This document shows, one piece after another, positions 1,902 to 61,246 of a stretch of DNA of 64,000 bases. The number at the start of each line of letters is the position of its first letter. Within the stretch, counting starts at the first letter, position 1. The translations under genes and the position numbers were made by a program. The stretch comes from an uncultured Flavobacteriaceae bacterium (GTDB lineage: Bacteria > Bacteroidota > Bacteroidia > Flavobacteriales > Flavobacteriaceae). Under the pieces are notes generated by a model, which was not told the origin of the DNA, ran no database searches, and saw nothing but the letters and a program-made list of their open reading frames with translations. Where the stretch lies: the NCBI GenBank assembly GCA_964463085.1, contig CAYXAZ010000001.1, forward strand, positions 21,906 to 85,905. Direction: 5' to 3'.

Positions 1902-2999
1902 TTATAGACCTAAAAATCTAATATTATCAATAAGTATTAACTCTGAATTTACATTTACATCTACTTCAATAACTAATTGAGCTGTTGTAAAACCTGTTAA
2001 ATCCACCTTTTGTTCTGCCCAAACACCTTGAAAAGGATAATTATCCAATTCTTTATCAGGATTATCTGCTTCTAAGTCTAGTATATCTAATACTTCTCCT
2101 CCGTCTGCAATTACATAAATTTTAACTTTATCTGGTGCTTGGCTTGAAGTCTCGTAACTAGTAGCAGTTATAAACACATCTAACGAAACAAAAGATTCTG
2201 TAAAACCAGAAACATCAACAGTGTCAAATGTTACTCTTATGGTTCCATCATTATCAGCAAAACCATAGCCTTGATCTCCATCGGTAAATGGAAGGCCTGG
2301 AGACGGATTTAATACTCCTATTGGTTCATTAACTAATCCATTTGGTGTATTAAATACTCTAGTACTAATAAATATAGCATCGAAACCTATTTCACCACCA
2401 GTAGAAACATAATCTACAGGTGATTCGCCCGGGTTATTTGTTAAATCGTGATCTATATCTTGGGTAACCGCATCATTATATCCTGTTCCACCAACAGGTT
2501 CTTCAAAACTTGTGCCTTTAATTAAGGTAAAATCATCTTCTTTTATAGTAAGCGTATATGTATTACCTGAACCTGTGTTAGGAAGCCCAACATTAAAATT
2601 ACCGGCAGATTCTAAGGTGTAAACCAGTGTTTTATCACCCTCAACCAAATCGTCATTTATCAATGTGGCAAGTTCAATATCTACAAAATGCTCTCCAGCT
2701 AAAATAACTGCATTACCAAAACCAGCTGGTAAGGTGTAATCAACTCCATCTACTGCTCCGTCTGGTGATGAAACAGAATAAGTAATGGGTACATCAGTAT
2801 TTTGAGTATCTGCAGAAAGAGAAACTTTTGCAGTAATTATTCCTACAGTATTTTCGACAGCACTTATATTTACATCAGCAAAAGATACCCAATATAAAGA
2901 ACTGTCTAACTCTTTTGATTCTATATCATCATTTTCACAAGAAGTTGCAAGTATTACAAAACAAATTATTAAAAATGATATGAAGTTTATTTTTTTCAT
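1902..2999 (-). CDS. Surface lipoprotein: Calx-beta/Ig-like domain plus the same C-terminal domain as 105-1877
   Basis: Lipobox ILATS-C followed by acidic ENDDIES; INDDLVEGDKTLVYTL is Calx-beta-like; directly downstream of SusD. Confidence 0.8.
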   Translation of the reverse strand: MKKINFISFLIICFVILATSCENDDIESKELDSSLYWVSFADVNISAVENTVGIITAKVSLSADTQNTDVPITYSVSSPDGAVDGVDYTLPAGFGNAVILAGEHFVDIELATLINDDLVEGDKTLVYTLESAGNFNVGLPNTGSGNTYTLTIKEDDFTLIKGTSFEEPVGGTGYNDAVTQDIDHDLTNNPGESPVDYVSTGGEIGFDAIFISTRVFNTPNGLVNEPIGVLNPSPGLPFTDGDQGYGFADNDGTIRVTFDTVDVSGFTESFVSLDVFITATSYETSSQAPDKVKIYVIADGGEVLDILDLEADNPDKELDNYPFQGVWAEQKVDLTGFTTAQLVIEVDVNVNSELILIDNIRFLGL

Positions 3000-3102
3000 G
3001 TGTTTATATTATTTTATGAAATCGGTCATCCCGATAGCTATCGGGACTGTTCGCTATTAGTCATTCCCTTAGGTGTGAAAAATAGTAACATGCTCGTTTC
3101 AT
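3000..3102 (-). repeat. Start-codon-adjacent element, copy 1, containing an 18-bp palindrome at 3029-3046
   Basis: Matches 4583-4692, 16545-16632 and 52327-52430; 14-bp direct repeat tttcatgtgtttat at 2994-3007 and 3097-3110. Confidence 0.85.
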
Positions 3103-3130
3103 GTGTTTATGTTTATTGTTTTTTTAACTT

Positions 3131-4582
3131 TTAATATCCTGTATTTTGAATCATATTAGGGTTTACATCTATTTCCTGCTGTGGAATTGGATATGCATAT
3201 AAATTACCTCCGTAGGTAACCGTACAATTATTTAAAAGTGAACAGTCATTTCTAACGATATCTAACTGTAATCTTTTTATATCAAAAAATCGATGTCCTT
3301 CAAATGCTAATTCTCTTCTTCTCTCATCTAGAATATCATTCATTAACTGCAATCCTGATGATGTTATTTCCGGTGCATTGGCTCTTTCAGTTATCTTGTT
3401 AATTGCAACTCTTGCCTCACCAGGTTCGTTTAGACCGACATGTGACTCTGCTTTGACCAAATACATTTCAGTTAACCTAACAACAGGGAGTGTAAAGTTT
3501 AGTAATGCTCCATCATTGTCAGGGTATTTATTTACGAAATTTTGCCCTCCTATATCTATAATCCAATTCTTTCTAACATCATTTCCTGTGTACATATTTA
3601 CGATATCAAAGTTAGGGCCTCCTTCACCCCGACCACCCGGTTGAGGTTTAAACAAACCTGATAAACTTGATATTCCTGCCCACAGACCATCTAAGTTGTC
3701 AAATTCAAGCTCAAAAATAGATTCTGAACTGGGTGTTCTGCTTGACCAAGAATCTATCTGTGATAGATCCAATACACCACCATCAAAAATCTTATACGGT
3801 GCTAATGTAAATCCTCCATTATCAATTACATCATTAGCATCTATCAACGCGTTAGCGTGGTCGCCCATATATAAATATACGCGGGCTCTTAATGCTTTTG
3901 CTGCCCAAGCTGATCCAAAATTAGGGGCATCTGCTGATGCTCTACTATTTCCATTACTCATTAAGTTAATTGCATCATCTAGATCAACTAAAATAAATTG
4001 ATAATTTTCTGCAACAGTATTTCTTGGAGGCTCTAATGTAATATCGGTAATCGTTACATAAGGTATTCCTAAATGACCAGCGTCAGTAGTAAATTTATAA
4101 TCTTGCGCATACAGTTTTAAAAGATCATGATGCGCTAAAGCTCTAATAAACAAAGCTTCTCCTTTAATTCTATTCTTCTCAGCCTCAGAACCATCAACAG
4201 CATCAACATTATTAATAACATTGTTAGCACGAGCAATAACATCATATATTTGTGCCCAAGTAGAAGAAACAGCATTGTCTGTTGAAATATAAGTCATTTG
4301 ATAAAATGGTTCAAATTTTAAAAATGAACCTGCACCACCGGGAACGATAGAATTATCAGAAGTCATGTGTGCAAATCCAGGCAAGTTTCTACCATAATAG
4401 CTTCTACTTTGCATACCGGCATAAGAACCCGTTAAGGCTATATCTAAACCGGAAATACTATTTAGAGCATCTTCCACTGCAAGTTCATCGTGCGGTTTCA
4501 AATCTAACTCACCTTCACATCCCGAAATCAATAACGAAGTTATCGATATCAATACTAAAAATATTTTATTAACTTTTTTCAT
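3131..4582 (-). CDS. RagB/SusD family outer-membrane lipoprotein (start moved to ATG at 4582)
   Basis: Signal peptide II LLISG-C; motifs GEALFIRALAH, VRLTEMYL..AE and ERRRELAFEGHRFFDIKR; downstream of SusC. Confidence 0.95.
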   Translation of the reverse strand: MKKVNKIFLVLISITSLLISGCEGELDLKPHDELAVEDALNSISGLDIALTGSYAGMQSRSYYGRNLPGFAHMTSDNSIVPGGAGSFLKFEPFYQMTYISTDNAVSSTWAQIYDVIARANNVINNVDAVDGSEAEKNRIKGEALFIRALAHHDLLKLYAQDYKFTTDAGHLGIPYVTITDITLEPPRNTVAENYQFILVDLDDAINLMSNGNSRASADAPNFGSAWAAKALRARVYLYMGDHANALIDANDVIDNGGFTLAPYKIFDGGVLDLSQIDSWSSRTPSSESIFELEFDNLDGLWAGISSLSGLFKPQPGGRGEGGPNFDIVNMYTGNDVRKNWIIDIGGQNFVNKYPDNDGALLNFTLPVVRLTEMYLVKAESHVGLNEPGEARVAINKITERANAPEITSSGLQLMNDILDERRRELAFEGHRFFDIKRLQLDIVRNDCSLLNNCTVTYGGNLYAYPIPQQEIDVNPNMIQNTGY

Positions 4583-4692
4583 GTGTTTATATTTATTATT
4601 TTTCAAAGGTTCCCGAGGCTTCGGGACTGTTCGCTATTCATCATTTCTTTGGATGATATCCCGAGACTTCGGGATTAGCATGCTCGTTTCAT
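4583..4692 (-). repeat. Start-codon-adjacent element, copy 2, containing two 16-bp palindromes (4611-4626, 4659-4674)
   Basis: Shares ctgttcgctatt..tcatt and agcatgctcgtttcat with the other copies; abuts the SusD ATG. Confidence 0.85.
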
Positions 4693-4715: not shown

Positions 4716-7700
4716 TTAAAATCCTAAATTTATACCTAAAGTAAAGGTTCTGGGAATTGGATATTCGCCTCTGGCACTTGAATTAGAGCCAACTTCAGGA
4801 TCTAGTTCCTTATATCTAGACCACGTTTTAACATTTTGACCTTGCACATATATCCTAAAATTGTTAATTCCGATCTTTTCTGTAATATCATTTGGAAGAT
4901 TATAGGCCAAGGTTATATTTCTTAGCTTGATAAATGATCCATCTTCTAAAAATCTTGTTGAGGGTTCCCCTCCGGTACCATTACCTGCAATATATCTTGG
5001 AACATCTGTTATGTCTCCCGGTTGCTGCCACCTGTCTAAAGCTTCAGCGGATTGGTTTCTAGGAAATCTTGAACCATCACTAACATAAGCTCTGGCTGAG
5101 TGCCTGAATATTTCATTCCCATAATTAAAGAAGAACATGGTTGATAATGTGAAGTTTTTGTAGGTAAAATCATTGGATAAACTGCCAAAAAAGTCAGGAT
5201 TAGGATTGCCCACAATTACTCTATCGGCATCACCGAAATTAGTTACTATATTATTGTCTGCATCATACCAAAGTGGTGCACCATTAGCAGGGTCTACTCC
5301 AGCCCATCTCGGCATATACCAAGAATAAATAGCTTCTCCTTCTTTTATAATCGTATTTGCCCTAAATGCGGTACTCCCTAAAGATCCAATTATTTCTATA
5401 TCATCGGGTAAATCTGTAACAACATTTTCATTAAATGAGATATTAAAATTGGTATTCCATTTAAAATTATCGGTTTCAATATTTTTTGTGCTTAATGAAA
5501 ATTCCCAGCCTGTGTTTTCCATTGCTCCTATATTTGATGGAACAGTATTGAAACCGGAAGTTAAACTGATAGGAAGATTAAGTAACATATCTGATACTTC
5601 TCTTTTATAATATTCTGCTGTTATTTGAATTCGATTATCAAACAATGCTAGATCTAAAGCAATGTCAAACTGCTTATTTCTTTCCCATCCTAAATCAGGA
5701 TTTCCTATTTCTGAAGGAAAACTTCCTGTATATGTACCTCCATTAGTATTATAGGTAGCTCCGTTAAAACCGTATAGTCTTCTCCAGTCATATTCTCCAA
5801 ATTTTTGATTACCTGATGTACCATAACTACCTCTCAATTTAAGGTTGCTAATTAATTTACTATCACTTAACCACTTGGCATTTGAAATAATATAGCCTCC
5901 TCCAACAGACCAAAATGTTCCGAATCGGGTATCGGTTCCAAAACGAGATTCACCATCTCTTCGTATACTTCCGTCTAAGAATAATGTGCTTTTATAGCTA
6001 TAATTCAATCTCCCGAATAATCCCCAGATGGCTGATTCAACAATATCTCCAGATGCTTCTAATATTTCCGGACCTGCATTTACTGCGTTAAGGTCATCAC
6101 TTGCAAAGCCAGTAACACGAATGCCAATAAATTCTTCTTTATGCTTTTGAAACTCATTACCTGCAAGCAATGTAAAGTCATGATCTTCGCCAACAGTAAG
6201 ATCATAAGTTAGTGTATTGGTCACAACATAATCAAAATTATTGGTTGAAAAGTCTCTTAATTCTGCCGGAGTTGGTGTACCGGTAGCTATAGCATTAAAA
6301 TATAATTGTGAAAATCGTTCTCTTTCACGAATATCAATATAATCTATACCGAAGCTATTATTGAATTTTAGGTTAGGTAGTATTTTATAATTGGCATACA
6401 GATTTGTAATGACTCTATTCGTTCTAGTTTCATTAAAATTCAGGTTTGCATACGCAATTGGGTGATTTCCGCTTGAGACTCCACTTGGGATATCAAAATT
6501 ATATCCGGTACCAAAATCTTCGCCATTAGCAATTTGTTCATCAGTAGCATATATTCTCATAGTTGGAGGCATAAAAAGCCCTCCGTATAGGGGTTCAGAT
6601 GTATTTGACTGTCCAAATCTACTATGTTGTATATTTCTTGTTAAACTCATTTTAACGCCTAAATCTAATTTTTTAGTAGCAGCATAATCAACATTGAATT
6701 TTGCAGATATTCTTTCAAAATCAGTGGTAATGGCTATCCCATCTTGATTCAAATAGCCTAAAGAAGCATAAAAATTAAGTTTTTCACTACCTCCGGAAAC
6801 AGAGAAATCTATTTTATTGGTTTTTGCTGTTCTTAAAACTTCATCTAACCAATCAATATCTGTAGCTGTTGAACTTAAAGGAAAATAATCTGAAGTCCCT
6901 GGAATGTCAGGGTTGCGCCCGGCATTGATAACACCTTCTCTCATCAATTCAACATATTCGCTAGCATTTAAGACTCTAAAATCGCTAAAATTTTCCCAAT
7001 CAGAAAAACCGGTTTGAGTATTTAAAATGAATCTTGCTTTGCCGGATTTTCCTTTTTTAGTGGTTATTATAACTACCCCATTGGCTCCTCTAGAACCATA
7101 AATAGAAGCCGAAGCAGCATCTTTTAAAATAGAAATAGATTCGATATCATTAGGGTTAATTGTTGATAGCGGATTATATGTTTGGGTAGTCCTATCTAAA
7201 TTTCCGGTATTTATAGGTACACCATCAATTACATATAAAGGACTTTCACCGGCTCCTATAGAACCTGTACCTCTAATTTTAATATCCATACCAGCTCCCG
7301 GTTGTCCATTATCCGGAGAAACAGCTACACCGGCTGACACCCCTTGTAATGCTTGATCAATACTAGTAGATAGCGTTTCATTAATCTCACTTGCACTTAC
7401 TGTAGAAACTGCCCCGGTTATTTTTTTCCTACTACTTGTTCCATAGGCAATAACAATAACTTCATCTAAGGAATCCGTAGCAGGATCAAGAAGTATATTA
7501 AGCTGTGATTGGTTGTCTACCTGAACTTCTTTTGTTGTATATCCCAGATACGAGACTACTAAAATAGCATTTGGTCCTGAAACTTTAATAGAAAAAATTC
7601 CATCAAAATCAGTAGTTACCCCGTTGGTTGTTCCTTTTTCGATAATATTGACACCGGGGAGCGGATTACCAAGTTCATCTTTTATTATTCCGTTTACCTC

Positions 7701-8072
7701 TTGTTGTTGAATAGTTTTAACTTTTTTAACAGGAACAGTTTTTACCTTAGTGATCAGCACATTTTTCCCCTCAATAAGATATCTGAATTTAGCTGTTTTT
7801 GATAAGTCATCTAAAATATGACTAAGTGATTGGGCATTATATACGGCTGTATATTTATTTTTGTTGTGGAGGATATACTCTCCGTAAGAAAAATTATAAC
7901 CTGTTTCATTTTTTAATTCTGAAAAAATTTGAATAAGCTCAACATCGGTCAGATTAATGCTTACTTTTGTTTTATCTGTGGTTTTTTGACTAATAAAACC
8001 ATAACTTATGTTAGTAACCAGTAAAATAGTTAGTAACAAAAAAAGTTTTAGTAAATAGTTTTTTAAATTCAT
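4716..8072 (-). CDS. SusC/RagA TonB-dependent transporter with N-terminal STN signalling extension
   Basis: Motifs GNPLPGVNIIEKGTTNG, PLYVIDGVP and DIESISILKDAASASIYGSRGANGVVIITTK; C-terminal F; extra N-terminal domain typical of ECF/FecR loci. Confidence 0.97.
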   Translation of the reverse strand: MNLKNYLLKLFLLLTILLVTNISYGFISQKTTDKTKVSINLTDVELIQIFSELKNETGYNFSYGEYILHNKNKYTAVYNAQSLSHILDDLSKTAKFRYLIEGKNVLITKVKTVPVKKVKTIQQQEVNGIIKDELGNPLPGVNIIEKGTTNGVTTDFDGIFSIKVSGPNAILVVSYLGYTTKEVQVDNQSQLNILLDPATDSLDEVIVIAYGTSSRKKITGAVSTVSASEINETLSTSIDQALQGVSAGVAVSPDNGQPGAGMDIKIRGTGSIGAGESPLYVIDGVPINTGNLDRTTQTYNPLSTINPNDIESISILKDAASASIYGSRGANGVVIITTKKGKSGKARFILNTQTGFSDWENFSDFRVLNASEYVELMREGVINAGRNPDIPGTSDYFPLSSTATDIDWLDEVLRTAKTNKIDFSVSGGSEKLNFYASLGYLNQDGIAITTDFERISAKFNVDYAATKKLDLGVKMSLTRNIQHSRFGQSNTSEPLYGGLFMPPTMRIYATDEQIANGEDFGTGYNFDIPSGVSSGNHPIAYANLNFNETRTNRVITNLYANYKILPNLKFNNSFGIDYIDIRERERFSQLYFNAIATGTPTPAELRDFSTNNFDYVVTNTLTYDLTVGEDHDFTLLAGNEFQKHKEEFIGIRVTGFASDDLNAVNAGPEILEASGDIVESAIWGLFGRLNYSYKSTLFLDGSIRRDGESRFGTDTRFGTFWSVGGGYIISNAKWLSDSKLISNLKLRGSYGTSGNQKFGEYDWRRLYGFNGATYNTNGGTYTGSFPSEIGNPDLGWERNKQFDIALDLALFDNRIQITAEYYKREVSDMLLNLPISLTSGFNTVPSNIGAMENTGWEFSLSTKNIETDNFKWNTNFNISFNENVVTDLPDDIEIIGSLGSTAFRANTIIKEGEAIYSWYMPRWAGVDPANGAPLWYDADNNIVTNFGDADRVIVGNPNPDFFGSLSNDFTYKNFTLSTMFFFNYGNEIFRHSARAYVSDGSRFPRNQSAEALDRWQQPGDITDVPRYIAGNGTGGEPSTRFLEDGSFIKLRNITLAYNLPNDITEKIGINNFRIYVQGQNVKTWSRYKELDPEVGSNSSARGEYPIPRTFTLGINLGF

Positions 8073-8152: not shown

Positions 8153-9079
8153 TTAGTTTTTTAGTTCTACTTCTATCATATTGTTTCGTTTTTGAGTTAA
8201 TTCTACTTCGCTTATAAAATTTATTCTCTTTACAATTGAGACTAAACTATCATTTTTATCAATAGTAATTGACATTCGGTGTTGTTGAGCCTGAGTACTT
8301 GAAAAGTTAAAGTTTACCTGATATATAGATGTAAGAAAATCTGCCAATTCTTTCATTGAAACATTTTCAAGCACAGCAATATCCTTGAACCAACCAGTAT
8401 ATAAATTATGGCTTATATTTTTTGTTAGTAAGGATTTCGATTTTAAATGGTATACAGCTTGCTGATTGGGTTTTATATTTACTGAACTTTCCGAGTCAAA
8501 TACTTTTACTAATCCTGAAGCTACTGTTACCTTGGTTATAGAATCTATTTCTTCAATATTAAAAGAGGTTCCTAATACTTTCGTACTTAAATTTCCTGTT
8601 TTTACTATAAACGGTTTTTCAATATTCTTAACAACTTCAAAGAAGGCTTCACCATTAAGAGCTACATATCTATCTTTTTGGTTAAAGTCTTCTTTATATT
8701 TGATTTCACTTCCTTTATTGAGTATAATAACGCTCCCATCTTTGAGTTCAATTTTTTTCGTTTCATCTGAAGTATTGGTTACTATAATAAAATCTATATT
8801 ATTATCTTGGTAGTATAAAAAAGTATATCCCATCCCCAACAAAATAATAATTGAAGCCGCAACCTTCATCCAATTTCTTCTTTCAGTACGAATCCTTCTT
8901 TTAATCTTCGTAAAGATCTCTTTTTTAATCTGTCTCTTTTTAAGATCACTTTCAAAGGCTATACCCTGATTTTTAGTTATAAAGTGTTCTTCAAACTTTT
9001 TTAAAAGTTTTTTCTCTTCAGGAGTTGCTTTCCCTGAAAGGAACTTTTCCAACAAAACATAAAATTCTTTTTCTGTCAT
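8153..9079 (-). CDS. FecR-family anti-sigma factor
   Basis: N-terminal LLEKFLSGKATPEEKKLL, one TM helix, motifs L.DGSVIILNKGS, LNGEAFFEV and VLGTSFNI. Confidence 0.95.
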   Translation of the reverse strand: MTEKEFYVLLEKFLSGKATPEEKKLLKKFEEHFITKNQGIAFESDLKKRQIKKEIFTKIKRRIRTERRNWMKVAASIIILLGMGYTFLYYQDNNIDFIIVTNTSDETKKIELKDGSVIILNKGSEIKYKEDFNQKDRYVALNGEAFFEVVKNIEKPFIVKTGNLSTKVLGTSFNIEEIDSITKVTVASGLVKVFDSESSVNIKPNQQAVYHLKSKSLLTKNISHNLYTGWFKDIAVLENVSMKELADFLTSIYQVNFNFSSTQAQQHRMSITIDKNDSLVSIVKRINFISEVELTQKRNNMIEVELKN

Positions 9080-9325: not shown

Positions 9326-9910
9326 TTAAAACATGAAGTTCAAAAAAAATAGCCATAAAAACAATGCAACTTTACTTTTAATTTGCTTAATGGCGTTTGA
9401 GATGTGTGTTTCTACCGTACGCCTGGAAATTCCTAATTGATCGGCGATTTCTATATTTTTCAAACCTTCAAAACGACTTAACTTAAATACCTGCCCACAT
9501 CTTTTGGGTAGTGCGTCAATTGTTTTGTGAATTAAATTATTGGCATCAAAAAAGTTTAAAGCATCATCAATATTGTTGGAAGTTGGTATTTGCTCTATAT
9601 ATTTTCGGTGATAATTTTTCATCTTTGAGTCTCTCAGCTCTTTATACACTCTGAACCTTACTGCTTTAAAAAGGTATGCTTCAATTTTATCATTTTCAAT
9701 TTTCTCTCTCCTCTCCCAAAAGCTAATCCATACTTCCTGAACCATATCTTTTGCAATATTTTTATCTTCAAGAATGGAAAATGCCAAAACATACATAGAG
9801 TCCCATAATCTATCAAATAATATTTCCAAGGCGCGTTCATCAGATTGTTTAATCCGATTCATTAAATCATGGTTGGTAATATTTTTGATAAACTTATTAT
9901 TCATACTCAT
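9326..9910 (-). CDS. ECF RNA polymerase sigma-70 factor (Bacteroidetes expansion family)
   Basis: Region 2 AKDMVQEVWISFW; region 4 LPKRCGQVFKLSRFEGLKNIEIADQLGISRRTVETHI; upstream of FecR. Confidence 0.95.
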   Translation of the reverse strand: MSMNNKFIKNITNHDLMNRIKQSDERALEILFDRLWDSMYVLAFSILEDKNIAKDMVQEVWISFWERREKIENDKIEAYLFKAVRFRVYKELRDSKMKNYHRKYIEQIPTSNNIDDALNFFDANNLIHKTIDALPKRCGQVFKLSRFEGLKNIEIADQLGISRRTVETHISNAIKQIKSKVALFLWLFFLNFMF

Positions 9911-15025: not shown

Positions 15026-15103
15026 TAAATCCCAATCCCGAGGCTTCGGGACAAATCACAAATAACAATTTCAAAATTATTTGGAATTTATTATTTGGAA
15101 TTT
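15026..15103. repeat. Degenerate heptamer tandem repeats with an inserted 16-bp palindrome (15036-15051)
   Basis: aaatccc/aaatcac/aaataac units followed by inverted tatttggaattt units; tcccgaggcttcggga lies within. Confidence 0.65.
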
Positions 15104-16544: not shown

Positions 16545-16632
16545 ATGAAACGAGCATGCTAAAAAGTTTAACACCCAAAGAAATGACTAATAGCGAACTG
16601 CATGTGACCGAATTATTAAATATTATAGACAC
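16545..16632 (+). repeat. Start-codon-adjacent element, copy 3 (no palindrome inserts)
   Basis: atgaaacgagcatgctaa...aaatgactaatagcgaactgcatgtgaccga...tatagacac followed by ATGAAA of the Lrp gene. Confidence 0.85.
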
Positions 16633-17097
16633 ATGAAACAAAAAGACTTACATATTGACGGAATAGATAAGATTATTCTAAAAAATTTAATGCGAGATGC
16701 CCGTGCACCTATCTTGAGTATAGCTAGAGAAGTTGGTGTTTCAGGTGCAGCTATTCATCAACGATTACGAAAATTAGAGAAATCTGGCTTATTGATGGGT
16801 TCTAAATTTGTTTTGAATCCAAAAATTTTAGGATATAAAACGGTAGCTTTCGTAGGCATTTTTTTAGATACTTCAAGTACATATAAAGAAGCATTAAAAC
16901 GTTTAAAAGAAATCGATGAGGTTATAGAAAGTCATTATACCACCGGTAACTATGCCGTTTTTGTCAAAATTTTATGTAAAGATAATGAGCATTTAATGCA
17001 AGTATTGAATAAACAAATTCAAGCTATTAAAGGTGTTTCAAGAACAGAAACATTTATTTCGTTAGATCAACAAATTGATAGACAAATAAAAATTTAG
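16633..17097 (+). CDS. Lrp/AsnC family transcriptional regulator
   Basis: IDGIDKIILKNL..DAR, HTH, IESHYTTGNY and GVSRTETFI. Confidence 0.95.
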   Translation: MKQKDLHIDGIDKIILKNLMRDARAPILSIAREVGVSGAAIHQRLRKLEKSGLLMGSKFVLNPKILGYKTVAFVGIFLDTSSTYKEALKRLKEIDEVIESHYTTGNYAVFVKILCKDNEHLMQVLNKQIQAIKGVSRTETFISLDQQIDRQIKI

Positions 17098-25529: not shown

Positions 25530-25564
25530 ACCCCGCTCCCGATAACTATCGGGATTAGTGGGGT
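25530..25564. repeat. Hairpin carrying an 18-bp palindrome in its loop
   Basis: accccgct / agtggggt outer stem enclosing tcccgataactatcggga (25537-25554). Confidence 0.7.
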
Positions 25565-45543: not shown

Positions 45544-45784
45544 TAGTTTAATCGAAAAGAATTCCCCTAGGCTCTGCCTCGGGGTTTCCGATTTACCTCT
45601 CCTTGGGAGAGGTCGGAACTGCTTTTCGCAGTTCCGGGTGAGGTAAAATACAAAATTTCGATTTTTGGTCCTAAGACCAAAGCTTGTGCTCAGCTTGACT
45701 GGATATGATCCCGATAGCTATCGGGAGGCGAAATATCCCTATGGCTCTGTCTCGGGGATAGTCGATTTCAAGAAATTTTTTATT
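45544..45784. mobile_element. Non-coding element bounded by two direct-orientation hairpins, with nested palindromes inside
   Basis: Hairpins at ~45561-45584 and ~45734-45757; internal cctctccttgggagagg..ggtgagg unit with a loop insert (45596-45643) and an 18-bp palindrome (45709-45726). Confidence 0.6.
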
Positions 45785-45785
45785 A

Positions 45786-45873
45786 GAGATTCTTCCCCGA
45801 GTACTCGGGGTTCCTCCTTCTGAATGACAGCACAATGTCATTCTGAGTGAAGTATAACGAAGCGAAGAATCTC
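45786..45873. repeat. Tail-to-tail pair of TGTC-type REP units, one carrying ccccgagtactcgggg
   Basis: gagattcttc...gaatgaca (45786-45829) is the inverted counterpart of tgtcattctgag...gaagaatctc (45836-45873). Confidence 0.75.
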
Positions 45874-46658: not shown

Positions 46659-46828
46659 GGCACTGTTAAGAAATAAATAGTGCAGAATTAGCGAAGTAAT
46701 TTTATTCTTTTTCAAGGCAATCCCGAAGCTTCGGGATCAAGCATAGCATCTCTATAGTTCAAAATTTTAACGCAGTAAAAGGGCAAAAGAACAAGCTAAT
46801 TCTGCACTATTTATTTCTTAACAGTGCC
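46659..46828. mobile_element. 170-bp MITE with 34-bp perfect terminal inverted repeats and a TAA target duplication
   Basis: TIR ggcactgttaagaaataaatagtgcagaattagc at 46659-46692 and 46795-46828; TAA on both sides, the left one being the stop codon; palindrome at 46721-46736. Confidence 0.9.
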
Positions 46829-52326: not shown

Positions 52327-52430
52327 GTGAAACACCCATAACTAAATCTTGATACACAAGGGAATGACTATATGGATGTTCCATGTGACTCCCGATAGCT
52401 ATCGGGATAAAAAACAATGAATATAGACAC
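52327..52430 (+). repeat. Start-codon-adjacent element, degenerate copy 4, with an 18-bp palindrome at 52390-52407
   Basis: gtgaaac...gaatgacta...catgtgac...tatagacac followed by ATGAAA. Confidence 0.7.
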
Positions 52431-53615
52431 ATGAAAGTAAAGACAGGTCTCGATATATTAATTCAAGATAAAGCACTTCAAAGTAAATTTAAAGGAAATG
52501 TGGCATTATTATGTCATAATGCGTCTATTGATTCAAATTTTAACCATGCAGTTTTAAAATTTAAAGAAATATTTGGTAAACGTTTTGTGAAAATATTTGG
52601 ACCTCAGCATGGTTTTTCAACTGATGTTCAAGATAATATGGTTGAAACTGATCATTATACGCATCCTTATTTTAACATTCCTGTATATTCGCTTTATTCA
52701 GAAACACGTATTCCTACTGATGAAATGTTAGAAAACATTGATCATTTTTTTGTTGATCTACAAGATGTGGGATGTAGAATATACACATACATCTATACAC
52801 TAACACTTTTATTGGAAAAATGTATTGGTAAAGACATTCAAGTTGTCATACTTGATCGTCCTAATCCAATTAACGGAATTGATATTGAAGGAAACATATT
52901 AGAGTCTGAATTCAAATCATTTGTTGGTCTCCATCCTATTCCTGTACGACATGGAATGACCATTGGAGAAGTTGCATTAATGCATCAAAATCTGTGGGCT
53001 AAAGAAAAAATAAATCTCGAAATAATAAAAATGCATCATTGGAAACGTGAAATGTTTTTTGAAGATACCAAATTACCTTGGATATTGCCTTCCCCGAATC
53101 TTGCAAGAGCAGAAAGTGCTTATACTTTTCCAGCAACAGTTTTGTTTGAAGGCACACAATTAAGTGAAGGGCGTGGTACTTCACAACCATTAGAAATTGT
53201 AGGACATCCAAAAATAAAGCCTTTTTTATTTTACGAAACTCATTTGTCTAATAGTATAAAAAAATCGAAGTTAAAAGGTTTTGTGCTTCGTCCTATAACG
53301 TTTCTTCCAACTTTTCAAAAACATACTAATACAATTTGTGGCGGTTTTCAAATTCACATTACTAATAAAAAAATCTTTAAACCCTGGCGTGTTGGTCAAT
53401 TTTTGTTACGGGAACTATATCATTATTTAGGAAATGATTTTAAATGGAAAGAACCTCCTTATGAATATAATTATACTCATAAGCCTATTGATATTATCAA
53501 TGGTACCGATAAATTAAGGCATTGGGTTGAAAATAATGAATCTATAGACAAACTTGATTCTTTTGAAAAATTAGACGATTATAAAGAACAGTTAAATGAA
53601 GTTAAAATGTATTAA
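52431..53615 (+). CDS. namZ: DUF1343 family exo-beta-N-acetylmuramidase (NamZ-like)
   Basis: Motifs IFGPQHG, DLQDVGCRIYTY, LDRPNP, HGMTIGE, PSPN and SEGRGT. Confidence 0.85.
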   Translation: MKVKTGLDILIQDKALQSKFKGNVALLCHNASIDSNFNHAVLKFKEIFGKRFVKIFGPQHGFSTDVQDNMVETDHYTHPYFNIPVYSLYSETRIPTDEMLENIDHFFVDLQDVGCRIYTYIYTLTLLLEKCIGKDIQVVILDRPNPINGIDIEGNILESEFKSFVGLHPIPVRHGMTIGEVALMHQNLWAKEKINLEIIKMHHWKREMFFEDTKLPWILPSPNLARAESAYTFPATVLFEGTQLSEGRGTSQPLEIVGHPKIKPFLFYETHLSNSIKKSKLKGFVLRPITFLPTFQKHTNTICGGFQIHITNKKIFKPWRVGQFLLRELYHYLGNDFKWKEPPYEYNYTHKPIDIINGTDKLRHWVENNESIDKLDSFEKLDDYKEQLNEVKMY

Positions 53616-60797: not shown

Positions 60798-60848
60798 AAA
60801 ATAAATTCCTCCTTAGCTCATCCCGATAGCTATCGGGAGGTTAGAGCA
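60798..60848 (+). pseudogene. Duplicated leader and 5' half of tRNA-Asn with an 18-bp palindrome replacing GTT of the D-loop
   Basis: 60798-60820 is identical to 61155-61177; then tcccgatagctatcggga in place of gtt; then ggttagagca as at 61181-61190. Confidence 0.92.
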
Positions 60849-60870
60849 AAGAAGAAAAGTTCTTTAAATT

Positions 60871-61163: not shown

Positions 61164-61237
61164 TCCTCCTTAGCTCAGTTGGTTAGAGCATCTGACTGTT
61201 AATCAGAGGGTCCTTGGTTCGAGCCCAAGAGGAGGAG
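61164..61237 (+). tRNA. tRNA-Asn(GTT)
   Basis: Acceptor TCCTCCT/AGGAGGA, anticodon arm tctga-ctGTTaa-tcaga, GGTTCGAGCCC T-arm. Confidence 0.96.
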
Positions 61238-61246
61238 CTTGAAAAC

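Follow-up and report, generated by a model that had tools for sequence, protein, structure and literature searches.

The window, a 64,000-nt stretch of DNA from an uncultured Flavobacteriaceae bacterium, has a G+C content of 31.6% and the gene content of an ordinary Flavobacteriaceae-type chromosome, with two sus loci, acc/fab, lrp, exbBD, rpoN, infB-nusA and sucAB. Re-reading of the sequence located four related copies of a short element at the positions given in a preliminary description of this DNA, namely 3000-3102 and 4583-4692 on the reverse strand and 16545-16632 and 52327-52430 on the forward strand. As stated there, the copies open with ATGAAAC (GTGAAAC in copy 4) and close with TATA(A/G)ACAC immediately 5' of an ATGAAA. 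Copies are thus present on both strands within 64 kb, and their orientation matches that of the genes. The alignment of the four spans about 90-115 nt, and the differences in copy length stem from GC-rich palindromes nested at fixed positions of the element.

Copy 1 (3000-3102, reverse strand) lies in the interval between susD and a lipoprotein gene, whose ATGAAA is found at 2994-2999, and carries the nested palindrome CCCGATAGCTATCGGG at 3030-3045. Copy 2 (4583-4692, reverse strand) occupies the susC/susD interval, has nested palindromes at 4612-4625 and 4660-4673, and is followed by the susD ATGAAA at 4577-4582. Copy 3 (16545-16632, forward strand) has 88 nt, is without a nested palindrome, and precedes the ATGAAA of lrp/asnC at 16633-16638; its upstream context consists of a terminator-like hairpin and then a promoter-like TACTTTTG box. 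Copy 4 (52327-52430, forward strand) separates the second susD from namZ (ATGAAA at 52431-52436) and has a nested palindrome at 52391-52406. The first three copies belong to a subfamily termed A. Copy 4, which had been taken for a degenerate copy, instead represents a subfamily B that is seen also in loci L018, L025, L029, L034 and L051. The downstream genes are those named in the preliminary description: Pfam identifies SusD, AsnC/Lrp and NamZ, and the 365-aa product encoded behind copy 1, for which no Pfam match was obtained, has the lipoprotein-like N-terminus MKKINFISFLIICFVILATSC. Small GC-rich palindromes, both those nested in the element and others dispersed across the window, look REP-like.

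A micro-ORF beginning MKRAC is present in copies 1-3, as had been noted. In copy 3 it reads ATG AAA CGA GCA TGC TAA (MKRAC-stop, 16545-16562, forward strand) and is headed by the former native lrp start; the MKRAC-stop mini-ORF of copy 2 is at 4675-4692 (reverse strand), and that of copy 1, starting at 3102 on the reverse strand, extends over 13 codons with the product MKRACYYFSHLRE. A 14-bp direct repeat had been described at copy 1. It turned out to be part of a 27-nt tail-only remnant of another copy (gttaaaaaaacaataaacataaacac, reverse strand), which has one mismatch to the tail consensus over about 3098-3124 and, assigned to 3103-3130, fills the space from the stop codon of susD to copy 1. 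No transposase or recombinase domain, and specifically no Y1 transposase, was found among the window's 46 ORFs of at least 150 aa.

An nhmmer profile built from the four copies recovered these four with E = 7e-32 to 5e-22 and no further full-length copy in the window. Core 17-mers occur 3-4 times in the window, compared with 0.2 expected from shuffled sequence. It could be argued that the four leaders resemble each other by chance, or through the low complexity of AT-rich initiation regions, since native initiation regions share the A-richness of the 3' tail and about 25% of genes start with ATGAAA. However, the nhmmer E-values, the far-above-shuffled 17-mer counts and the loci elsewhere that match a 21-nt split pattern (at least 116; see below) refute a chance resemblance, and the CAC with which the tail ends, at -3 to -1, is also untypical of native starts. 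We give this explanation practically no credence.

The wider distribution was obtained by scanning one genome per species with the pattern AAACGAGCATG-N(25-55)-AATAGCGAAC. This gave at least 116 loci from at least 69 assemblies, nearly all of them Flavobacteriaceae, including many marine ones, and the carriers among the matches listed included Winogradskyella, Lutibacter (with the cultured Lutibacter flavus), Kordia, Lacinutrix, Mariniflexile, Psychroserpens, Bizionia, Polaribacter, Dokdonia, Aquimarina and Formosa. Complete genomes with the element include those of Candidatus Marifrigoribacter sp. Uisw_064 (NZ_CP159833.1), Lacinutrix neustonica (NZ_CP113088.1), Mariniflexile sp. AS56 (NZ_CP151839.1) and a Kordia sp. 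(NZ_OZ245041.1). Because the scan demanded two exact boxes, 21 nt in total, the sample is biased, and the conservation of these boxes and of the AAA of the 5' hexamer is imposed. When nhmmer was run on the listed loci together with the window (919 kb), 139 copies were detected. Their 96-nt consensus is ATGAAACGAGCATGTTAAAAATTTTATCACCCAAGGGAATGATTAATAGCGAACAGCATGTGACCATTAAAAAACAATAAATATAAACAC-ATGAAA, and the element measures 88-96 nt, reaching about 130 nt where palindromes are nested in it. Subfamily A predominates, copy 4 of the window and five other copies make up subfamily B, and L160 has the one copy of subfamily C. All three have in common the 5' ATGAAAC, a GGRATGAYTA box, either CCATGTGAC or GCATGTGAC, and an A-rich tail ending in ACAC-ATGAAA. 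Three direct repeats of the form AAC(N)A(G)CATG are found per element, at about nt 4-14, 52-62 and 84-91. Terminal inverted repeats, whose absence had already been noted, could be detected neither by eye nor by alignment: the ends CGAGCATG... and ...ATAAACAC (reverse complement GTGTTTAT) are dissimilar, and the sole inverted repeat, CATGTG with CACATG, is internal.

Among the matches listed, copies that share an assembly resemble each other no more than those taken from different ones (similarity 0.76 versus 0.75), which gives no indication of recent bursts. IMG/VR and phage and plasmid collections contained no match that would indicate a phage or plasmid vector. No autonomous parent, in which the ends would flank an ORF, was present among the fetched loci, and neither a mobilising enzyme, nor an excision product, nor a very recent copy was found. 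Full-text literature searches by sequence words and by topic gave no description of the element.

The preliminary description had let its proposal stand or fall with the position of copies elsewhere, which were to abut start codons in gene orientation. Among the matches listed, the terminal ATG opens an ORF of at least 60 aa in 111 of 133 full copies; another 13 lead head-to-tail into a further copy sharing the hexamer, and the remaining 9 are without a clear ORF. The downstream products begin with MK in nearly all cases and are diverse, including secreted proteins, lipoproteins and housekeeping enzymes with no common function; MetF, QueD, Tgt, AccC, LeuC, L24 and L31 were read from N-terminal sequences. 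At susCD, RNA-guided transcription by dCas12f/sigma-E has been reported, with targets upstream of susC and up to seven loci per guide RNA (PMC13472631). A link to that system was considered and is a poor fit, as the element occupies the susC/susD interval and precedes numerous genes that have nothing in common.

The start association is not accounted for by the occurrence of the hexamer as such. In the same DNA, unoccupied ATGAAA hexamers number 181 at ORF starts, 186 at non-start intergenic positions and 1234 inside ORFs, where the intergenic census rests on crude ORF calls. With random insertion into the hexamer and loss of the coding hits, about half of the arrays would therefore be expected off starts, whereas 111 of 120 arrays (about 93%) are at starts (p = 2e-24 versus hexamer frequency). 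Crude as the ORF calls are, the gap is very large, and hexamer frequency alone cannot explain the association.

The 5' side of the element also bears the marks of a gene start. Its first codon, which was not imposed by the scan pattern, is ATG in 110 of 126 copies (87%), and the 30 nt upstream of it have the composition of a native initiation region. A at positions -11/-12 is found in 66% of cases, compared with 59-63% at native ATGAAA starts, and A at these positions promotes initiation in Flavobacterium johnsoniae (PMC6847099). Such a native-type 5' flank argues that the 5' ATG of the element is the old start. T is enriched at -1/-2 of this ATG (56% and 49%, versus 30% and 28% at native ATGAAA starts). 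Tandem arrays often combine unlike units, A with B or units with and without the palindrome, which fits repeated insertion into the hexamer of a resident copy and not local duplication.

Orthologous sites without the element were sought by comparing every gene that bears it with the whole of the fetched DNA. Empty sites with a single ATGAAA, which the preliminary description had called for, exist for lrp and metF and in the filled/empty pairs L100/L097, L057/L077, L107/L033 and L035/L049. For lrp, metagenomes were scanned with the Lrp protein of the window, giving 80 loci, none of which (0/80) had a copy detectable by nhmmer. The closest of these homologues (77-91% identity) have the same upstream accC and the same terminator hairpin, followed about 35 nt past the hairpin by one ATGAA(A/G), which corresponds in position to the 5' ATG of the element in the window. 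The N-terminus is equally long in both cases, MKEKELHIDG... at the empty sites and MKQKDLHIDG in the window. MAFFT alignment of filled and empty lrp sites misplaced the gap, and anchored pairwise alignment was used in its place; with this, the alignment of the window lrp site with L122 has a single clean 88-nt gap. In the metF pair (L106, filled, and L002, empty; 87%) the empty site has a single ATGAAA. The element thus shows insertion polymorphism.

The target may be less strict than these pairs suggest. At the empty site of L055/L018 the sequence is ATGAAG, and the pairs L113/L031, L108/L028 and L048/L058 have another second codon. Of about ten empty orthologous sites, three thus have a codon other than AAA in second place (MSK, MRL, MSL), and it is not proven that every event involved a strict ATGAAA target. 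The start of lrp is occupied by A copies in the window and in L118, the latter decayed, and by a C-type copy in L160; this site has therefore been struck more than once.

How the interrupted gene would be translated can be approached from the geometry of the two ATG codons. In 80 of 126 copies (63%) the displaced start opens MKRAC-stop, and the commonest distance separating the mini-ORF stop from the real ATG is 70-72 nt. The distance from ATG to ATG is mostly 87-91 nt and is spread over the three frames without preference (44/43/39), and an overlap of -4 between mini-ORF stop and real ATG was seen in 2 of 126 copies only. Since the ATG spacing is equal in the three frames, coupling through overlapping stop and start codons is not the rule, and translational coupling of the type proposed for the mycobacterial MIRU repeats is ruled out by the length and position of the mini-ORF together with the missing frame preference. 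The tail in front of the real ATG has A at -6, -11, -12 and -14 to -15, and C at -3. Partition-function folding gave a pairing probability of the real AUG of 0.59, versus 0.59 for native starts, at 37 C and 0.71 versus 0.70 at 15 C, while positions -6 to -4 and +4 to +6 are predicted to be more open than at native starts (0.2 versus 0.45). A function as RNA thermometer or start-sequestering leader was rejected, because the AUG is no more paired than native starts and its neighbours are more open. A CAUGUG:CACAUG helix hiding the start was likewise rejected as the main function; its cells are paired in 87-96% but with few compensatory changes, and AUG pairing equals that of native starts. The folding predictions and tail composition suggest that translation of the gene would begin at the 3' ATG, where the element provides open, A-rich surroundings, and that ribosomes would use this ATG independently of the mini-ORF. 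Translation from a start supplied by the element would make the insertion nearly harmless.

Conservation of the inserted sequence was compared across orthologous copies at metF (four Winogradskyella), queD (three Kordia), tgt and a further pair. Identity is 89% in core positions free of the scan pattern, 78% in the flanks, 80% in the tail and 68% in third positions of the coding sequence. Taken together with the equal similarity of copies within and between assemblies, this points to purifying selection on the core in place, and not to recent bursts or homogenisation. A core under purifying selection at orthologous sites implies that the inserted leader probably has a role in cis too, which on the basis of sequence comparison might be, for example, protein binding or the quieting of the decoy start.

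This raises the question of whether the element is chiefly a functional cis-regulatory leader RNA, riboswitch-like or a site for a global RNA-binding protein, which has been recruited to many genes and whose link to the start reflects its function. Besides the core, which is better conserved than flanks or synonymous sites, identical boxes are kept across genera. In subfamilies B and C a stem of 5-10 bp (P1), absent from A, pairs nt 5-14 with a segment just 5' of CCATGTGAC and shows compensatory differences (AACAUCCAUA/UAUGGAUGUU versus AACGCCC/GGGCGUU). A long-range pair, 57-107, joins the Y of AAUGAYUA with the R of AUARACAC and covaries (UA 61, CG 24, UG 6, CA 6; Fisher p = 6e-12, odds ratio 41), and the rule holds in 7 of 7 B/C copies; as shared ancestry inflates such counts, the covariation is taken as suggestive only. 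Against a leader RNA in this sense, RNAalifold returned 0 pairs and hence no consensus structure for 105 subfamily-A copies, and the named helices, although 79-91% paired, are mostly invariant with few double changes, not covarying. In Rfam only tRNAs passed the gathering scores and nothing credible matched the element even at E = 10. The downstream genes (SusD, lipoproteins, Lrp, NamZ, MetF, QueD, Tgt, AccC, LeuC, L24, L31) are functionally unrelated, the start codon is no more sequestered than native ones, and presence/absence polymorphism, unlike tandem units and nested palindromes are typical of DNA that has been inserted. The portable leader RNA offered as one option in the preliminary description therefore keeps the conservation of the core between orthologous copies in its favour and loses the consensus fold, at least in the main subfamily. 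As a full explanation it appears unlikely to us. It covers the persistence of the element, not its arrival, and may hold alongside an interpretation as inserted DNA.

Overall, we consider it likely that the copies represent a chromosomal family of Flavobacteriaceae, non-coding and non-autonomous, that inserts in one orientation exactly at ATG AAA starts. Of the mobile element targeting translation starts that had been proposed, the abutment on start codons and the empty sites stand, while the suggested replacement of the 5' UTR does not, as the old UTR and start are kept upstream. In the mechanism we propose, integration at an ATG AAA start would leave the hexamer ATGAAA at both ends. The upstream hexamer would keep the native promoter and initiation region and open a short dead-end ORF, and the downstream one, preceded by the A-rich, unstructured tail of the element (...AAAAAACAATAAATATAAACAC), would be the working start, leaving the protein unchanged. 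The element would in this manner repair the start codon that it interrupts, and such repair would explain why even ribosomal-protein and sus operons tolerate insertions. A site-specific recombinase or transposase, which we infer to act in trans, may have its recognition sites in the three conserved AAC(N)A(G)CATG boxes, with crossover taking place within ATGAAA.

Duplication on insertion and a single element-borne copy would leave the same ATGAAA at both ends and are indistinguishable here. The second of these possibilities corresponds to a derivative of the IS200/IS605 type (PATE), which would insert 3' of ATGAAA without duplication and use its own ATGAAA as right-end cleavage site. The absence of terminal inverted repeats, the strict orientation to a short left-flank sequence, the same hexamer at left flank and right end, and the stem that B and C copies have close to their left end are all in line with this, and the covariation of an internal position with one 7 nt from the right end recalls the base pairing between guide and cleavage site that is known from IS608 of the IS200/IS605 family. 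The commonest subfamily, A, is however without convincing subterminal hairpins, and the hexamer exceeds the 4-5 nt targets known for that family. Lagging-strand bias would also mispredict the copies on both strands in 64 kb, which follow the genes, unless an origin lay between them. With no Y1 transposase in the window, and with a short target alone leaving the avoidance of non-start ATGAAA unexplained, we regard an IS200/IS605 derivative as improbable.

It is tempting to go further than insertion at ATG AAA starts, and to speculate that the family is a previously undescribed kind of mobile element that recognises translation start sites as such and not just the hexamer, and restores the start that it interrupts, with an enzyme that is possibly guided by base pairing of the element with its target, and that it may have been domesticated as a shared 5' leader exerting one post-transcriptional control over dozens of unrelated genes. 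We put this forward as a tentative possibility, which we would at present doubt more than believe.

An insertion at a start codon should kill the gene, and an element that brings a replacement start and initiation region would allow even essential operons to be colonised. Bacteroidota as a phylum start translation without Shine-Dalgarno sequences, and the element may serve as a natural portable initiation cassette for the genetics of this phylum. It also provides many clean pairs of filled and empty sites for study and may be a lead to a recombinase or transposase highly specific for gene starts. Gene callers can go wrong by taking the element's 5' ATG for the gene start.

The element can in some respects be compared to several known families of small repeats. 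MITEs and other small repeats, such as Correia/NEMIS, ERIC, RUP and bcr1, are likewise small, non-coding and multi-copy, show presence/absence polymorphism, have a short direct repeat at their ends and are co-transcribed with their neighbours. ATGAAA at both ends, small size, the lack of an ORF, many copies and empty sites were all found here. The usual MITE model is nevertheless unfit because terminal inverted repeats are absent, and the present element differs further in its strict gene orientation and in that about 93% of arrays are on true starts, and not at a short target anywhere in intergenic DNA. REP/BIME sequences resemble it as intergenic repeats within operons, and its small nested GC-rich palindromes are REP-like, but the element itself is a non-palindromic, asymmetric sequence with about 90 conserved nt and is found at the 5' ends of genes, not after stops. 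With IS200/IS605 PATEs it shares the absence of inverted repeats, oriented insertion beside a short specific sequence and the lack of coding capacity; it departs from them in its main subfamily without convincing subterminal hairpins, its longer target, the lack of any visible strand bias in the window and the absence of a linked transposase. In integron attC sites, folding is brought about by imperfect inverted core sites (RYYYAAC ... GTTRRRY). The element was rejected as such a site, as its ends are not inverted, the consensus beginning with ATGAAACGAG and ending with ATAAACAC.

The closest known analogue, by description, is the mycobacterial MIRU. According to a recent review (PMC12548453, citing Supply et al. 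1997, Mol Microbiol 26:991), MIRUs seem to be mobile and to insert at start codons, where their internal ORF is coupled to the target gene and the latter suffers little disturbance. MIRUs too are short (40-100 bp), non-coding repeats in transcription units, oriented with the genes, sometimes in tandem, and located at start codons. The internal ORF of a MIRU is coupled to the gene by a -4 overlap, whereas the mini-ORF here stops after 5 codons, about 70 nt early. In the present element the start hexamer is repeated and the gene would be re-started differently, in a host without Shine-Dalgarno use. The two belong to different phyla of very different GC content, and their sequences are presumably unrelated, which would make the element a second, independent example of apparent MIRU behaviour. 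We conclude that it is a new variant, nearly confined to Flavobacteriaceae, of a rare and poorly understood type of repeat.

Two perfect, GC-rich palindromes recur in the window, CCCGATAGCTATCGGG at 3030-3045, 25538-25553, 45710-45725, 52391-52406 and 60822-60837, and CCCGARNNYTCGGG at 4612-4625, 4660-4673, 15037-15050, 45796-45809 and 46722-46735, each occurring five times against an expectation of 0.1-0.2. Four of these ten palindromes are nested within the start-codon elements, where their positions are fixed, and different palindromes, CTGCCTGCGGCAGGCAGG and AGCCTGCCCCGTACTTGATACGGGG, are found at different fixed element positions in other loci. The GC-rich palindromes of the window and of the element may represent REP-like mobile hairpins or optional stems. 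Separately, the 5' part of tRNA-Asn (gene at 61164-61238) is duplicated at 60808-60850, with the GTT of the D-loop replaced by CCCGATAGCTATCGGG; this partial copy was not called as a tRNA by ARAGORN.

Remnants consisting of the element tail only, 14-27 nt in length and with AAACAC at the end, were observed in the window (3103-3130, minus strand) and in two stretches from other genomes or metagenomes, L066 (about 5690-5712) and L083 (about 2400-2417). On their 5' side all three adjoin the upstream gene's stop codon, and on their 3' side a full element copy. At the lrp start the inserts differ between lineages: a decayed, 53-nt element copy in L118 (165-224), an unrelated insert of approximately 105 nt, non-repeated, in L126/L127 (about 1350-1455), and in L160 (1379-1492) a copy of subfamily C that has a stem of 7 bp.

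The MetF protein of Winogradskyella eximia (L106) has only about 62% identity to those of the other Winogradskyella compared (L036, L029 and L047), versus 87% to that of an unrelated MAG (L002), while the upstream gene and the element (approximately 95%) remain Winogradskyella-like. A gene replacement at metF, the breakpoint lying close to the element, is one possible reading.

Single element copies were also found on the minus strand within the ribosomal-protein operon, in the rplN/rplX gap (L095, about 6291-6413), and ahead of rpmE (L088, about 4375-4483). These three genes were assigned from their N-terminal sequences, without a profile search, and if the naming is correct, highly expressed essential genes tolerate the element insert.

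In the first sus locus, where an element copy lies between susC and susD, the products of three minus-strand genes (4716-8072, 8153-9079 and 9326-9910) are a SusC that carries a FecR_C-like extension at its N-terminus, an anti-sigma factor of the FecR type and an ECF sigma factor. This set is the usual trans-envelope signalling arrangement.
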